Shown: in pieces, positions 3,666 through 48,297 of the stretch
Position numbering within the stretch: position 1 is the first letter of the stretch
How the letters are laid out: every line of letters begins with the position of its first letter
NCBI GenBank assembly: GCA_963759215.1
Contig: CAVWYG010000006.1
Location: 1,243,146 to 1,307,145, forward strand
Reading direction: 5' to 3'
DNA: 64,000 bases
Source of the DNA: an uncultured Acidobacteriota bacterium
GTDB lineage: Bacteria > Acidobacteriota > Terriglobia > Terriglobales > Acidobacteriaceae
Notes under the pieces: model-generated
Seen by the model: the letters and a program-made list of their open reading frames with translations, nothing else
The model's database searches: none
Told to the model about the DNA's origin: nothing
Translations under genes and position numbers: made by a program

Positions 3666-4926
3666 TACGAAGGATTCTCGACGTTGATCTTTACCTCGAC
3701 GCCATCCGACATGGGCGTGGGACTGTATGACTGGAGGGCGACGACATCGCCGTCGGAGATGCCGCTGAGGATTTCGACCCTGGTCAAATTGGAGATGCCG
3801 AGCGTCAAATCGCGGCGGTGCAGGTGATCGCCCTGGAGGACGTAGACGTAGCTGTGGCCGTTGTCCTCACGCACCGCTTCGCGGGGTACGGTAAGAGCAT
3901 TTTCCTTACTGTTGGCAATGATTGTGGTGTTCACGTTTATGTTCGGCAGCAGCAGGTGCTCGGAGTTATCGACCTTGCAAAGGACCTCGGCGACGACTCG
4001 GGAGCCGCGGTTGACGACGGTGGAGGGCAGACTGGCGACGGTACCCTGCCAGGAGTGTCCGGGCATCGCGTCCCAAGTAATCTTAACGATTTGTCCGATG
4101 GCCAGGCGGCCGATTTCGGGCTCGTCCACGAAGGCGCGAACTTGCAGCTGCGAAAGGTCGGCCTCCTGCAACAGCAGGTCTCCAATGTTGACCCAGGCGC
4201 CGACGCGGGCCGGCAGGAAGTAGACGGTACCATCAAAGGGAGCGCGGATATTGCACTTGCGGATGGTCTCCTCGGCGAGGTTGACGCTGGCCTTGGCATC
4301 GGCGATTTCCGATTGCGCGCGCGCCTGCTCGTCGGGCGAGTAGCGGACCTGCGATTGAAGCTGGGTGAGGTCGGCCTTGGCGCGGTCGAGACGATCGCGG
4401 GCGGCAGCTACTTCGTCCGGGGTGGCGGCACCGCGCTGCTGCAGCCGTTCGAGGGCCGAGAGCTGGCGTTGCGCCGCGTCGCGCTCGGTGGTTGCCTTCT
4501 GCAGGTCGGCGCTGCGCAGCAGTAACTGCTGGTGACTGCCGCCGGCCATCAGGTCGTTATATCTCTCCTGCGCTCCTTTGAGGCGGGTGAGCGCGGTGGC
4601 AAGGTCGCCGCGGGCGCGGGTGTCGTCCAGCACGAGCAGCAACTGCCCGGACTTTACTTGTGCGCCTTCTTTGACCAGGATTTGTTGCACCGTGCCGGAG
4701 AGCGGGGCATGGGCTTCAAAGCCGTGAATGGGTTCGACCTTTCCATTGGTGGTAATGGAGCTGGAGACTTCCTGACGCACGGGCTTGACGACCGAGATGC
4801 GGATGCGATGAGGGCGAAGCTCAATGTAGGTCCCGAGTCCGACTATAAAAATCAGAAGGATGACCAGCATTGTGATCCAAGTTCGGCGAGCTCCGCCGAG
4901 CGAGCTGTTTAACGTTCCGTTAGCCA
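3665..4926 (-). CDS. efflux transporter periplasmic adaptor subunit (HlyD/MacA family)
   Basis: Intact 420-aa ORF starting MANGTLNSS, with a TM anchor, a long coiled-coil (RLKGAQERYNDL...RDRLDRAKADL) and beta-barrel/lipoyl motifs typical of membrane-fusion proteins. The upstream ORF extension is probably not translated. Confidence 0.8.
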
Positions 4927-6123: not shown

Positions 6124-6561
6124 ATGGCTACGAAGAAGAAATCCGCATCGGAATCCGCACACCAGGGCGCGACGCGGCTGGGCTACACGCCGGACCACGC
6201 CGCCAGTGGACTGGATCACAACTTTCCAGCGATTGAGTGCTGGCCCAACCAGTTTCCCAGCTACGTCATCGAAATCGACATCCCTGAATTTACCTCGGTG
6301 TGTCCGAAGACGGGACTGCCGGACTTTGGCACCGTGTGGATTCGCTACGTGCCCGGCAAGTTCTGCCTGGAGCTGAAGTCACTGAAGGAATACATCAACG
6401 AATACCGCAACCTTGGAATCTTCCAGGAAAACATTGTGAACCAGATTCTTGAGGATGTGGTGAAGGCCGCCAAGCCGGTGTGGTGCGAGGTTCGCGGACA
6501 GTTCCGGCCGCGCGGCGGGCTGGGGACGCTGGTGGAGGCGCGCTGGCCGAGAACGAAGTGA
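6124..6561 (+). CDS. queF: NADPH-dependent 7-cyano-7-deazaguanine reductase (unimodular QueF)
   Basis: Catalytic Cys in SVCPKTGLPDFGTV and the ELKSLKEYINEYR motif; 145 aa. Confidence 0.85.
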   Translation: MATKKKSASESAHQGATRLGYTPDHAASGLDHNFPAIECWPNQFPSYVIEIDIPEFTSVCPKTGLPDFGTVWIRYVPGKFCLELKSLKEYINEYRNLGIFQENIVNQILEDVVKAAKPVWCEVRGQFRPRGGLGTLVEARWPRTK

Positions 6562-6584
6562 AACAGCGTGGGCCTACGCATCCG

Positions 6585-6619
6585 CACATCTGCTAGAGGC
6601 AAAGGCGACAGATGTGGGG
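6585..6619. repeat. palindromic hairpin element CACATCTGC...CAGATGTGGGG (short member of the repeat family)
   Basis: Inverted repeat read directly; related copies at 9224-9254, 17970-18000 and 18720-18733. Confidence 0.6.
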
Positions 6620-6628
6620 CAGCGGCCG

Positions 6629-9036: not shown

Positions 9037-9150
9037 GAACCGGTGTAGCCCGACGCAGTACATCACCTCGAGTACTGATTAGAAAAATGATGGCGGGTTG
9101 AAAAGCTTGGGACCGCGCGGAGGATTTGAGCAGGGCTGGGATCTTTCGCT

Positions 9151-9307
9151 GCGCTCAAGATGACCAGCGTGGAGAAAATGCAAATTCAAGGGCAAAACCA
9201 GGAGCAAAGGCAAAGTCAACTACCCCACATCTGCTAACTACGGCAGATATGGGGCACCAGTTCTGCACCTGCGGTCATTTCGGTTTAACTAGTGCTCAAG
9301 ATGACTC
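9151..9307. mobile_element. MITE-like repeat element flanked by a 12-bp direct repeat GCTCAAGATGAC (9153-9164 and 9294-9305); contains the hairpin CCCCACATCTGC/GCAGATATGGGG at 9224-9254
   Basis: The internal sequence CAAGGGCAAAA...GGAGCAAAGG...TCAACTACCCCAC is shared with the copies at 12853-12965, 14346-14436 and 15078-15168. Confidence 0.5.
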
Positions 9308-9325
9308 TCTAAAAACACCAGCAAG

Positions 9326-9850
9326 CTACCAGGCGCGGGCGCGCTTGCTGGAGGACGAGGCCTTGCCTGTGGCGAAGGGCTTGGACTGAACAGCGTCAAA
9401 CTCCGGTGGCGGATCGCCGGCGGCGACGCGAATCTGCTCTCGGTCCTTTACGAGGATTACGGGATGGCCGCCGCGAGACTCGGTGACATCTCCCATGACG
9501 GCGATGACCTTGCCGCGCAGATAGGAGAGGTCGCCAACATTGCCGCGACTACGTTTGGAGATTACCGCCTGAAATGAGCATTTATTGTTGGGGCAGAGCG
9601 AGAGATGGGTGTTGCCGCTTTTGCGGACGGTGACACGAAAGACCTTTCCCGCAACGCATCCGTGATTGCCGATCAACACCGAGGCGTGCGAAGCGGGAGT
9701 GCACTCCACTTGGAGCCCGCGCAACTGGGAGTCGGCTTTTTGCGCCGATTGTGCCGGGGGTTGCGCGGTGGTAGTGGGAGTGGCGCTCTGCTGGGCGAGG
9801 GCTGGTGTGATGAGCAGCAGAGCGACGCACATAAGCCAGCGTAAGTTCAC
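9326..9850 (-). CDS. secreted hypothetical protein (signal peptide, several Cys)
   Basis: MNLRWLMCVALLLITPALAQ signal peptide. GTG start overlaps the stop of the upstream CMD gene (GTGA overlap). Confidence 0.55.
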   Translation of the reverse strand: MNLRWLMCVALLLITPALAQQSATPTTTAQPPAQSAQKADSQLRGLQVECTPASHASVLIGNHGCVAGKVFRVTVRKSGNTHLSLCPNNKCSFQAVISKRSRGNVGDLSYLRGKVIAVMGDVTESRGGHPVILVKDREQIRVAAGDPPPEFDAVQSKPFATGKASSSSKRARAW

Positions 9851-15828: not shown

Positions 15829-18592
15829 CTACTCCACCTGCTTTTTCAACTCATACAACAAATTCATCGCCTCGCGGGGGCTGAGGGAGTCGAGGTCGGC
15901 TTCGCGGAGGCGGTCGAGGACGGTGTTGGAGACCGGGGTGAAGATCGTCAACTGCACCGGGCCGGATTTTTCTGGCTTGGGAGCAAGCTGGGTGGTGGCG
16001 GCGTGTTCGGCGTTCTCGTGCTGGTGCAAGACCTCGCGGGCGCGGGAGATGACTTCGGCGGGGAGGCCGGCGAGTTTGGCGACTTCGATGCCGTAGCTTT
16101 TGTCGGCGGCGCCGGGTGAGACCTTGCGTAGGAAGACGATGCTGCCGGCGGTTTCCTTGACGCTGACGTGATAGTTCTTGACCGAATCGAGCAGCGTTTC
16201 GAGCTCGGTGAGTTCGTGGTAGTGGGTGGCGAAGAGCGTCTTGGCGCGGCTGTGCTGGTGGATGAATTCGACCACGGCCCAGGCGATGGCGAGGCCGTCG
16301 TAGGTGGCGGTGCCGCGGCCGATTTCGTCGAGCAGGATGAGCGAGCGCGAGGTTGCGGTGTTGAGGATGGCGGCGGTTTCCGTCATTTCAACCATGAAGG
16401 TAGAGCGGCCGCGCGCGAGGTTGTCCGAGGCTCCGATGCGGGTGAAGATGCGATCGACTGTGGAGAGGCGGGCGCGGGTGGCGGGGACGAACGAGCCCAT
16501 CTGCGCCATCAGTACGATGAGCGCGGTCTGGCGCAGGTAGGTGGACTTGCCGCCCATGTTGGGGCCGGTGATGAGCAGGATCGACTGGCTGGAGGCGTCG
16601 AGATAAAGATCGTTGGGGACGAAGCGGTCGTTGGAGCCGGTGAGCTCGGGCTGCTCAATGACGGGGTGGCGGCCTTCGAGGATTTCGAGAAGTTGGGCGT
16701 TGTTGTTAGATTGCGGGTCGTTCATCTGCGGGCCGTGAAGCTGGTCTTCAAAGTTCGGGCGGCAGTAGTTGCGCAGCGCGGCAAGATGCGCGAAGGAGAG
16801 CAGAACATCGATCTCGGCCAAGGCCAGCGCGCTCTGGCGAATGCGGCGCGATTCGGCGGCGATACTCATGCGCAGCTCGGCGAAGAGGCGGCGCTCGATT
16901 TCGACGATCTTCTCTTCGGCATCGAGAACCTTGGTTTCGTATTCCTTTAGCTCCGGCGTGGTGTAGCGCTCGGCGCCGACCAGGGTCTGCTTGCGCTCGT
17001 AGTCGGCGGGGGCATGTTGCAGGTTGGCCTTGCTGATCTCAATGTAAAAGCCGAAGACGTTGTTGAACTTGACCTTGAGCGAGTTGATGCCGGTGCGCTC
17101 GCGCTCGCGTTGCTCGATTTGGGCGATGTAGTGTTTGCCGTTGCGGCTGATGTCGCGGAGTTCGTCGAGCTGCGGATCGAGTCCGTTCTGGATGACTCCG
17201 CCATCGTTGAGAGTGATGGGCGGCTCGGGGAGGATGCTGCGCTCGATGCGCTCGCGTACGTCGGCGAGTTCGTCGAGCAGATCCACGAGTGCGGTGAAGC
17301 GCGCGGCAGGGAAGTTGGCCAGCGCGCGCCGCACGGCGGGGAGCCGGGCGAGCGACGCGGCGAGGGCGAGAATGTCGCGTGGGTTCGCGGTTTCAAGGGT
17401 GATGCGGCTGAGCAGGCGCTCGATGTCAAGAATGCCGTCGAGTCGAGCGGCGCAGCTCTTCGCGATGAATGATGCTGGCGAGGGCGGCGGAGACGGCATC
17501 GAGGCGTTGGTTGATTTCGGCGACATCGATGGAGGGGCGCAGCATCCAGGCACGCAGGAGGCGCTTGCCCATCGGGGTGAGGGTGTGGTCAAGGGCGCGG
17601 AAGAGAGTTACGGCGTCTCCGGAGCCGGCAAAGAGGGGCTCGATCAACTCGAGGTTGCGGACGGTGACGGCGTCAAGGATAAGGCAGTTCTGGCGCTCGT
17701 AGTAACCGATGCGGTCCACATGGCCGAGTGAACCACGCTGAGTCTGGCGGACGTAGTGGAGGATGGCTCCCGCGGCGCAGGCAGCGGCGTTGTGGTTGGC
17801 GAGGCCGAAGCCCTCCAGCGATAAGACGCCGAAATGATTTTCAACCAGAGGGACGGCGTAGTCGGTGGCGAAGATCCAGTCGTCGAGCGGAGTCTCGCTC
17901 CAACGCGCGAAGGGCGCAAGGTCGGTGGAGGCCAGGCGCGGCGTGGGCGTGTTTGGCGCACCCGCTTTACCCACATCTGCTAAATGCGGCAGATGTGGGG
18001 CACCCGGGGCGGATTGGAAGAGGGGCAGCGATGCGGCGTAGAGGAGCTCGCGTGGGCGCAGGGTTTGGAGCTCGTCGGCGACGCGGCGGTCGGCGTCGGG
18101 GCCGATGAATTCGGTGGCACGGAATTCGCCGGTGGAGAGATCGAGGGCGGCGAAGCCGAGGGTGCAGCCACCGTTGAGACCCGAACCGCTGCCGTGGCGA
18201 GCGACGGCGCAGAGGAAATTGTTCTCCTCGGAGCCGAGCTGCGAGTCGGCGGCGGTGCCGGGAGTGACGACTCGGGTGACTTCGCGGCGCACCAGTTTCT
18301 TGGTGAGCTTGGGGTCCTCGACCTGGTCGCAGATGGCGACCTTGTAGCCTTTGCGAATGAGCTTGGCGATGTAGCCTTCGGCGGCGTGGTAGGGAACTCC
18401 GCACATGGGGAGGGCTACGCCATCGACCTTCTGACGCGAGGTGAGGGTGATCTGAAGCTCGCGCGAGGCGGTGACGGCGTCGTCGAGGAAGAGCTCGTAA
18501 AAGTCGCCCACGCGGAAGAACAGCAGCGCGGTGGGATGCTCTTTTTTGATTGCGGCGTGCTGCCGCATCAGCGGGGTTGAGGCTTCACTCAT
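15829..18592 (-). CDS. mutS: DNA mismatch repair protein MutS, interrupted by a +1 frameshift near 17445 (tcgActcgac)
   Basis: N-terminal 388-aa ORF (mismatch-binding, connector and lever domains) and C-terminal 587-aa ORF (Walker [13 protein letters not shown]). The junction ...LREELRR | [11 protein letters not shown] reconstructs if one nucleotide is removed. Confidence 0.85.
17970..18000. repeat. hairpin repeat CCCACATCTGC-N8-GCAGATGTGGGG inserted in-frame within mutS (encodes [11 protein letters not shown])
   Basis: Same palindrome as at 6585 and 9224; the mutS alignment shows ~20 extra residues here relative to E. coli MutS. Confidence 0.6.
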
Positions 18593-18783
18593 GGGGAAAA
18601 TTTGGGGGTCTCAAAGGGCCGAGTATAGCAGAGCCGGGCTGGTTTGAGAGGATTCGAGCGACGGCGCACGGGCGTGAAAGGGACGGACCTTGGCCCGTTT
18701 CCGCACAACTCTTAGCGCTGCATCTGCTAGAGCATAAATCCCGGAGTTGCGCAGCGGCATCTTGGGATTCTGAGAGGGACCAC

Positions 18784-20007
18784 GTGCGCATCCCGATTTT
18801 GAAGAAACTGAGTCTGCTTCTGCTCGGTGGGTCTGTAGCGTCATTGGCACTGTTACCCGCCTGCGGCAGTGGTCGGCCCACTACTGCGAGCACACAATCC
18901 AACACGTTTGTTTATGTCACCAGCCTTGTTGAAAGTGTCGGCCCGAGTGGCACCTTTTACTCTGGTTCGGGTGGCATCTCCGAATTCCAAATGGCTTCGA
19001 CCGGCACGCTGACAAAAGTGGCTGGCTCGCCCGTATCGTTCAACTCAAATATGCCGACGACGCTTGCGGCAGACCCGCTGGGCCGGTTCCTGTTCGCCGC
19101 GAGCGCGAACAGCATATTCACCTTCAGCATTGCGCCGAGCACCGGCGCACTCACGCAGGTGGCAAGCTCCAGTCTTCCTCCTGCCGGGAGCACACAATTT
19201 GCGGGCGGCCCGATGGCCGTGGATCACGCGGGTAACTTTCTGTATGCGCTGACCCTGAATGGACTGAACGTTTATTCCATTGGGGCCAGCGGTGCTCTCA
19301 CCATTGTGCAGACGATCGTGACGGCGGTGGATCTGATCAGTGGCGGGATCGCACTGGATAGCGCTGGGAAGTTTCTCTACGTGGTTACCACCGGGAACAC
19401 CGCTGGCATCGGCGTAGCCAGTCCGACGGTGTTCGCGGTCGATTCCAAATCGGGGATGGTGACAAAGGTCAGCTCGTTTCCGGTCTATCAGTTTGGCACG
19501 GGAGGGCTAGCAGTGAATCCGAATGGGAGCTTTGTTTACGTCCTGACCGCGCATCCCGTGACCAACCTGGTTTTCGCGAACAACAATGGAACCGTGACGC
19601 AGGTGCAAGACACGGGGTGCGGCTGCGATCTGGACCTTGAAGGCGGATTTGTCCTGGTGCACCCCTCAGGTAAGTTCCTCTATGAAACGGTCAGCAATGA
19701 AGTCATCGGAATGAGCATTGGCGCCGATGGCACGCTGGGTGCGGCGATATCGCCATTCTCGGGCTTTCTTTTGACGCCAACCCCTGGAGTGAAAGTCGCC
19801 ATTGGGCTCGATCCGGGCGGCAACTTTCTATTCGCATCGCAGAGCTTGCTCACCGGCCCGAACTCCACACTTAGGACTCCGGTGGTTACGGAGTTTGCGG
19901 TGGATTCAACCACGGGTAACCTGAAGCAGTCACCCGGCTCGCCGTTTACGCTCGATGTGGCATCCAGTGATCCGTTCGCGACGGTTGCAGTGAGTGTTCC
20001 CCGGTAG
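18784..20007 (+). CDS. beta-propeller lactonase-family lipoprotein
   Basis: GTG start giving VRIPILKKLSLLLLGGSVASLALLPAC (lipobox LPAC), then repeated GxFLY/SxxGxxL blades (NFLYALT, KFLYVVT, SFVYVLT, KFLYETV). Confidence 0.75.
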   Translation: MRIPILKKLSLLLLGGSVASLALLPACGSGRPTTASTQSNTFVYVTSLVESVGPSGTFYSGSGGISEFQMASTGTLTKVAGSPVSFNSNMPTTLAADPLGRFLFAASANSIFTFSIAPSTGALTQVASSSLPPAGSTQFAGGPMAVDHAGNFLYALTLNGLNVYSIGASGALTIVQTIVTAVDLISGGIALDSAGKFLYVVTTGNTAGIGVASPTVFAVDSKSGMVTKVSSFPVYQFGTGGLAVNPNGSFVYVLTAHPVTNLVFANNNGTVTQVQDTGCGCDLDLEGGFVLVHPSGKFLYETVSNEVIGMSIGADGTLGAAISPFSGFLLTPTPGVKVAIGLDPGGNFLFASQSLLTGPNSTLRTPVVTEFAVDSTTGNLKQSPGSPFTLDVASSDPFATVAVSVPR

Positions 20008-29356: not shown

Positions 29357-29431
29357 GCGGGAGTAGTTCAGCGGTAGAACGCCAGCTTCCCAAGCTGGAT
29401 GTCGCCGGTTCGATCCCGGTCTCCCGCTCCA
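29357..29431 (+). tRNA. tRNA-Gly (anticodon CCC)
   Basis: Acceptor stem GCGGGAG/CTCCCGC; D-arm AGTTCAGCGGTAGAAC; anticodon loop TTCCCAA; T-arm GGTTCGATCCC; 3' CCA encoded. Confidence 0.95.
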
Positions 29432-48052: not shown

Positions 48053-48297
48053 CCTGCCCACGATTCACTCCTGAATCGTGGGCAGAATTAAGGGGTAACA
48101 CAAGGACGCTAATGCCGAAGGCGCTATCACTGGTGGGTTCAATCTTCGGATCGCGCAATTGAGACGACAAATCCGCCTGCTCGAAGGCATGTACTCGCGC
48201 GAGGGTGTAGATCAATCTTCTGACTTCAGCAGGAACGCGGCCGTTGAGAGTGACTAAGGTCATAGCAAGACGCCTGATGGAAGAGCAGGATTGCATC

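Follow-up and report, generated by a model that had tools for sequence, protein, structure and literature searches.

The mutS gene of an uncultured member of the Acidobacteriaceae carries, in frame, a short hairpin that is very probably a repetitive extragenic palindromic (REP) element, resident in the mismatch-repair protein as a passenger. The gene lies on the minus strand of a 64,000-nt stretch of contig CAVWYG010000006.1 (positions 1,243,146 to 1,307,145), the whole of which is referred to below as the window. Numbered on the plus strand, the left arm of the hairpin (CCCACATCTGC) occupies 17970-17980, the loop (TAAATGCG) 17981-17988 and the right arm (GCAGATGTGGG) 17989-17999, and a conserved tail, GCACC, follows at 18000-18004. 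Together these form a unit of 35 nt with a perfect 11-bp stem, an 8-nt loop and a 5-nt tail. In the sense of the mRNA the order is tag GGTGC, arm CCCACATCTGC, loop CGCATTTA and arm GCAGATGTGGG, and the element encodes 12 residues of MutS, G197-G208, in frame within the minus-strand open reading frame (ORF) 17426-18592. The first-pass annotation of the window had described a palindrome lying in frame within mutS, with only one stop-free frame through it, the one in use. Arm positions and translation of the ORF bear out both statements, the remaining two sense frames being interrupted by TAG and TAA stops.

Matches to the arms number six across the window, against 1.7 expected, and no shuffled sequence reached six. 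The hairpin in its 61-nt context is predicted to fold at -33.1 kcal/mol as RNA (z = -4.0) and at -19.1 kcal/mol as DNA (z = -4.3), with no shuffle as good in either case. An Rfam scan of the whole window matched only a tRNA gene at 29357-29428, leaving the hairpin in no curated RNA family, and a test for an intrinsic terminator found no T-run after the hairpin on either strand. The loop in which the element lies is rich in Pro, Ala and Gly codons and in GC, short similarities arise easily in such sequence, and the assembly has indel errors. An ancestral loop resembling the repeat by chance, or an artefact of assembly, is nevertheless barely credible and is effectively refuted by the comparison with the family consensus, in which every one of the 22 arm bases agrees, as does the 5-nt tag, and the loop departs from CGCAGTTA at a single position. 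Furthermore, orthologous copies are held by two independent assemblies, and the corresponding segment of the closest relative is no more similar to the element, in register, than random sequence.

The hairpin had also been assigned to a dispersed repeat family, and this assignment holds: there are three copies in the window and a lineage-specific family elsewhere. The family was scanned for as an exact pattern, CCCACATCTGC-N8/9-GCAGATGTGGG-GCACC, in one genome per prokaryotic species; the totals are lower bounds. At least 119 stretches with at least 134 perfect copies were found in these species-representative genomes, and among the 80 loci listed, 78 are metagenome-assembled genomes (MAGs) of Terriglobia, Acidobacteriaceae or Korobacteraceae. 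A consensus built from 133 copies has GCACC on one side only and flanks that are otherwise unconserved. The unit measures 35-36 nt and comprises an 11-12-bp stem, an 8-9-nt loop and the one-sided tag (GGTGC / GCACC), in which the first three bases, G, C and A, are conserved at 100% (a result of the rule used to orient copies), the following C reaches 96% and the final C 89%. Two classes of loop are present, one TAACTGCG-like (8 nt) and the other CAAAACCGG-like (9 nt). Other hairpins in these genomes retain the tag and the stem base (CCCA...TGGG[G/C]CACC) and differ in the upper stem with compensating changes; the upper-stem variants of this superfamily include ATTTGCC, TCAA(GC), CCTTTCGGC and ATTAATGCCC. 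As in REP families, the repeat is a short stem-loop palindrome with many dispersed copies in soil Acidobacteria of the order Terriglobales, mostly intergenic (two of three in the window), and its tag is one-sided and conserved, yet it belongs to neither the GTAG nor the CGTC superfamily. All three window copies are singlets rather than the inverted pairs at short fixed distance that define REP doublets forming hairpins (REPINs), and tandem direct pairs are found at some other loci, such as L074 and L079 (L-numbers denote loci fetched from other genomes). With respect to miniature inverted-repeat transposable elements, which measure 70-300 bp and have terminal inverted repeats and a target-site duplication, the mutS copy has no conserved sequence beyond its 35 nt, and the copy at 9224 lies in a 141-nt segment bounded by direct repeats.

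The fetched loci were screened with tblastn for ORFs resembling Y1 transposases. An ORF of L113 scored 94.5 bits against NCBIfam NF047646, the model for REP-associated tyrosine transposases (RAYTs; curated cutoff 80), and also matched Pfam Y1_Tnp; an ORF of L008 is 57% identical to it. Both genes are flanked by two inverted copies of the mutS-type element with the tags pointing outward (4741-4775 and 5322-5357 in L113; 5384-5420 and 6003-6037 in L008). A RAYT gene between inverted REP copies is the defining arrangement of REP-RAYT systems (PMC2817692, PMC3116915), or REPtrons, and because it is present in these two related genomes the hairpin family is a REP family of Terriglobia with a non-canonical tag. 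Mobilisation by a RAYT is moderately likely to have been the route of the element into mutS.

Two further RAYT-like genes, in L003 and L207, were considered as the cognate transposase and rejected, as the hairpins on either side of them belong to another family, GGCACGNCTGAAGNCGTGCC. The spacing of about 1.2 kb between paired copies at several loci was likewise discarded as the mark of a RAYT cassette: it holds for L008, but in L059 a different gene lies between the copies, so that there is no fixed unit. The GGCACGNCTGAAGNCGTGCC hairpin, followed by a CTTCAAA-like sequence, surrounds the RAYT genes of L003 (2146-2165 and 2287-2306) and L207 (approximately 1880-1900 and 2470-2490, within the nuo operon) as a second REP-RAYT system in Terriglobia. 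A hairpin of this second type is also translated in the MutS loop of L153 (2688-2859).

The element sits in a predicted-disordered surface loop of the MutS connector domain. Residues 1-189 of the window protein align with residues 8-184 of Escherichia coli MutS, and residues 239-369 with 202-330, leaving an unaligned loop of 49 residues in the window protein against 17 in E. coli. In the AlphaFold2 model, residues 194-228 have a predicted local distance difference test score below 50 and no secondary structure, and they are bounded by confident strands at 182-186 and 232-236; alignment and model together thus map the insert to a disordered excursion of the connector domain. Two statements of the first-pass annotation need revision here. 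The segment, given as about 20 residues longer than in E. coli, is longer by about 32, and the element is not the cause of the added length, because MutS is equally long, at 920 aa, in the closest relative that lacks the hairpin. Among 232 Terriglobales MutS sequences the loop between LPLF and ETPLDDW varies from 13 to 71 residues. A long loop is a feature of the whole clade, and the element brings no net gain in length.

Comparison of loop alleles in relatives suggests that the mutS copy was inserted and is decaying in sister lineages. The loop of L127, whose MutS is about 94% identical to the window protein in its N-terminal part, reads GGTGCCCCACATCTGT-CGCAGTTA-GCGGATGCGGG, with three stem pairs lost and the consensus loop of the family kept. 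The loop of L124 (91% nucleotide identity) reads GGTGCGTCACATCTGC-CGCAGCTT-GCTGGTGTAGA, with at least four stem pairs lost. Both share site, register and orientation with the window copy and are its decayed orthologues. An unrelated segment, 'APQPSLAA...PAPN', occupies the site in L123, L126 and most relatives at 85-94% identity. Aligned in register with the window segment it agrees at 14 of 51 nt by hand count (approximately 27%), which is the random level. The segment might conceivably be a decayed element itself; a one-codon gap raises its agreement with L124 to approximately 62% over 21 nt, which is suggestive but unconvincing in Pro/Ala-rich sequence. The element is specific to a sub-lineage: decayed copies are confined to L127 and L124, and an unrelated segment is found in L123 and most others. 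Alignment of the relatives' loops also gave no instance of the pattern expected of an ancestral loop, in which close relatives lacking the repeat family carry the same insertion.

The history of the loop is likely to include recombination between mutS alleles, because L127 is the closest sequence around the loop (sliding-window identity 0.93, against 0.88 for L123, at 400-600 nt) and L123 is the closest elsewhere. These values, together with the presence of element-bearing and 'QPSLAA' alleles among genomes that are approximately 91-94% identical, allow the reading that mutS is a mosaic and that the window lineage received an element-bearing loop allele from a related strain by homologous recombination, with no insertion de novo. 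Such an origin is possible, if rather unlikely. Only a handful of sequences lies behind the comparison, and the element must still have inserted into some ancestral mutS, so that only the route into this genome would change.

The preferred account is that a REP copy was placed once into the connector-domain loop, in an ancestor shared by the lineages of the window, L127 and L124. The agent was likely a RAYT acting by single-strand cut-and-paste or by copying; alternatively, a loop allele already bearing the element may have been acquired by recombination. It is proposed that the insertion was kept because its frame was open and its site permissive: a disordered surface loop would tolerate almost any sequence, and the element is stop-free in this orientation and frame. 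It would now persist as a passenger peptide of approximately 12 residues with no required function, decaying by point mutation. Several observations weigh against this account. No clean empty site was found among the relatives, which have unrelated sequence of about equal length instead. L123, the closest relative over the whole gene (94% nucleotide identity) and of equal protein length, lacks the element, whereas the more distant L124 carries it, and recombination or loss is consequently needed in addition to a single insertion. The tblastn screen found no RAYT gene in the 64-kb window, so that the evidence for a transposase comes from other genomes, and to our knowledge RAYT-driven transposition of a REP has never been directly shown in vivo for any family. 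The tag, moreover, differs from both GTAG and CGTC. The neutrality of the peptide, finally, is inferred from predicted disorder and from sequence variability.

A function for the hairpin within mutS was also weighed. The structure might affect the mRNA by pausing or stabilising it; as DNA, it might be a hairpin or RAYT target that favours reversible inactivation of mismatch repair; or the peptide that it encodes might modulate the MutL-binding surface nearby. The stem is perfect and stable, and the window copy retains all 22 arm bases while its orthologues have decayed. In addition, the loop ends approximately 10 residues ahead of the position aligned with E. coli Q211/Q212, which form the MutL-interaction site; this is a lead rather than a finding. 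REPs also recur in repair genes, both here and in published work (PMC3733652). A function is nonetheless improbable. Pairing has been lost in L127 and L124 and most relatives have no hairpin, so that the structure is not conserved; lineages differ in stem, orientation and frame and so encode unrelated peptides; and the frameshift in mutS, 530 nt away, fits a pattern of assembly indels. It is still less probable that the loop is a preferred landing site for this REP superfamily and not just a tolerant one, through which the cell or the RAYT could act on mismatch repair. Were that so, breakage at the hairpin or by the RAYT, with deletion, could switch lineages to a mutator state, peptides encoded by REPs beside the MutL-binding surface could tune repair, and the element would gain an adaptive advantage from recurring in repair genes (here those for the Pol III alpha-type polymerase, MutS2 and the DEAD-box helicase; in published work uvrA, uvrB and recBCD).

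Other stem variants of the superfamily have entered the same MutS loop repeatedly across Terriglobales, in one orientation or the other. A variant with a 9-nt loop, GAPYLPVVGRCG, is present in L125 and L137, where it shares site and orientation with the window copy. A second, CCCCACATTTGCC-AACTGCA-GGCAAATATGGGCCACC, is present in the opposite orientation and farther along the loop (PHLPTAGKYGPP) in L120, L171 and six related proteins. The orientation is again opposite in L138 (CCCACTCAA-N11-TTGAGTGGGGCACCC) and L145 (CCCACATTAATGCCC-N7-GGGCATGAATGTGGGCCACCC), and that of the window in L207 (GTGCCCCATCCTTTCGGC-N6-GCCGAAAGGGTGGG). Judged by peptide signature, a member of the superfamily is present in 27 of 232 loops. 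Motifs of other repeat families are found in a further 16 of the 232, two of which were checked at the DNA level and contain a different double hairpin (L208) and the second REP family (L153). A single protein loop has thus been reused by at least five stem variants, in both orientations, across Terriglobales. Its filled, decayed and alternative alleles form a natural series in which the entry of REPs into coding sequence, and the rate of their erosion there, can be studied.

The element was sought in other ORFs, as had been recommended, and was found in frame in six further genes of related genomes, each verified by Pfam domains on both sides of the copy (Table 1). Stop-to-stop frames of 200 aa or more that span a copy number only 34, and the six verified genes are among them. 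Other translated repeat-like segments, for example SSRAEREHGERAAEGPAF and AAGSERPAFGREQAASESRDLHF, lie near the copies in the polymerase gene of L016 (approximately 6200-6420) and in the helicase gene of L111, and repeats of several families seem to gather in these permissive linkers. Peptides derived from REPs (GAPHLP..ADVG, PHLP..GRCGAP, PTSA..QMWGT, KGWD/E and others) inflate and confuse protein alignments and annotations in Terriglobia, and phylogenies that take mutS as a marker should mask the loop.

Table 1. Location of the mutS element, its host gene and related features; positions refer to the window unless a locus is named.
Feature	Position	Strand	Basis or description
REP element in mutS	17970-18004	minus (mRNA sense)	Arm matches, reading frame, folding, consensus
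Hypervariable MutS connector-domain loop, residues 190-238	17879-18025	minus	E. coli alignment, AlphaFold2, relatives
mutS gene	15829-18592	minus	Two ORFs, 17426-18592 and 15829-17592; 920 aa once repaired
REP copy, spacer between queF and major facilitator superfamily (MFS) transporter gene	6583-6623	plus	One mismatch per arm, 14-nt loop, tail GCAGC
REP copy, convergent intergenic spacer	9224-9258	plus	Loop TAACTACG, one arm mismatch, tail GCACC
REP-bearing 141-nt segment with the 9224 copy	9165-9305	plus	Present in window, absent from L123 and L124
Pol III alpha-type polymerase gene	L016		In-frame REP of mutS family
HypF gene	L029		In-frame REP of mutS family
S9 peptidase gene	L054		In-frame REP of mutS family
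Mur ligase gene	L067		In-frame REP of mutS family
MutS2 gene	L074 2423-2557		Two tandem in-frame copies about 105 nt apart (GAPHLPESADVG ... GAPHLPQLADVG), just upstream of MutS_V
DEAD-box helicase gene	L111		In-frame REP of mutS family

The other two window copies, matched at 6583-6618 and 9224-9253, also differ between relatives. The copy at 6583 has orthologues in L124 and L125 and is absent in L120. Its expanded loop is TAGAGGCAAAGGCG, where the orthologous copy of L124 has the consensus 8-nt loop TAACTGCG, and this looks like an insertion within the hairpin loop. A similar event is seen in the mutS-loop hairpin of protein P0152, with 17 additional residues between PHLPTA and GKYGPP. A 12-nt direct repeat, GCTCAAGATGAC, marks the limits of the segment containing the 9224 copy, with units at 9153-9164 and 9294-9305; at this site L124 has a spacer of only 22 nt. 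In the window, the spacer around the segment also contains another common acidobacterial repeat, gatctttcgctgcgctcaagatgac. The peptide TPHLLTTADMG, previously reported as encoded by the 9224 copy, is indeed encoded, but the 87-aa ORF concerned (9126-9389) begins with TTG in a convergent spacer and is probably spurious. The tag alone, GTGGGGCACC, matches seven times in the window against 4.8 expected and is not over-represented beyond the three hairpins; the four matches outside them are without a hairpin. Another palindrome, at 48054-48085 (CTGCCCACGATTCA-ctcc-TGAATCGTGGGCAG), has perfect 14-bp arms around a 4-nt loop; it shares the base CCCAC...GTGGG with the REP superfamily, but its tail is GCAG.

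The identity of the host gene as mutS (MutS1) is clear from domains I-V in order with the ATPase domain, and from a match to E. coli MutS structures at E = 1.8e-68. Pfam places MutS_I, II and III on the ORF 17426-18592 and MutS_III, IV and V on the ORF 15829-17592, and the repaired 920-aa protein retrieves many intact orthologues, up to 94% identical. The two ORFs are separated by a frameshift, one extra A on the sense strand at 17443 relative to L120, L121 and L122. This is probably an indel of the assembly rather than a natural pseudogene of mutS, because three of the 22 genes compared in synteny with L124 have broken frames in the window (mutS, an HATPase_c_2 anti-sigma-type gene at approximately 11170 and a STAS gene at approximately 10660) and related long-read MAGs also have a split mutS, at other positions. 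A real frameshift, and with it a natural mutator, is still conceivable. A second variable segment of MutS was observed just ahead of the GRHPVIE motif of domain V (16320-16440 in the window, residues approximately 720-750); it measures 24-40 residues among relatives and contains short D/N/Q-rich tandem-like units, with no hairpin seen. Beside mutS, between it and a DUF4931-like gene, is an ORF of 485 aa (18550-20007) that appears to match the Lactonase-like gene at the same position in L126. L123, L124 and L120 have only a spacer of 100-160 nt there, indicating a polymorphism of gene content next to mutS.

The element had been likened to Rickettsia palindromic elements (RPEs). RPE-1 is 100-150 bp long and restricted to Rickettsia, and we know of no association with a RAYT described for it. 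The likeness lies in palindromic repeats that reside in frame in functional protein genes at surface-exposed positions, and residence in frame is the sole property shared: the unit here is 35 nt, has no conserved flanks and no sequence relationship to RPEs, and its hosts are Terriglobia. The comparison therefore survives as an analogy, the mutS element being a RAYT-linked REP and not an RPE (for RPEs, see references 13 and 14 of PMC3733652). A closer resemblance is to the REP/REPIN-RAYT systems of Pseudomonas, E. coli and Stenotrophomonas (Nunvar et al. 2010, PMC2817692; Bertels and Rainey 2011, PMC3116915), with which the family shares a single HUH/Y1 transposase gene between inverted copies of a dispersed repeat, compensatory changes in stems, and presence or absence between relatives. 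It differs in that the window copies are singlets, the RAYT is found only in related genomes and the tag is another.

The closest precedent is the survey of Di Nocera, De Gregorio and Rocco (2013; BMC Genomics 14:522, PMC3733652), which reported intragenic REPs in frame in several phyla, many of them in replication and repair genes (uvrA, uvrB, dnaE2, recBCD, polA), and argued for tolerance of the inserts as opposed to a function. The claim that a palindrome in frame in a repair gene is novel was thus overstated, even though mutS is not among the reported cases; a search of the literature for palindromic in-frame elements in mutS found nothing specific. Like the surveyed REPs, those of Terriglobia are palindromes of 20-40 nt with a one-sided tag, mostly intergenic, with a minority wholly inside ORFs and translated and with some families flanking a RAYT. 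The tag is GGTGC (GCACC) here, as opposed to GTAG/CGTC there, and the survey contains no mutS case and no acidobacterial REP family. The mutS element is a real but probably harmless case of a phenomenon known in other bacteria. Through it the known range of in-frame REPs in repair genes comes to include a further phylum (Acidobacteriota), a further host gene and a REP family whose tag is different. The novelty, for which the survey has no counterpart, is the recurrent use of one MutS loop, entered by several stem variants in both orientations.

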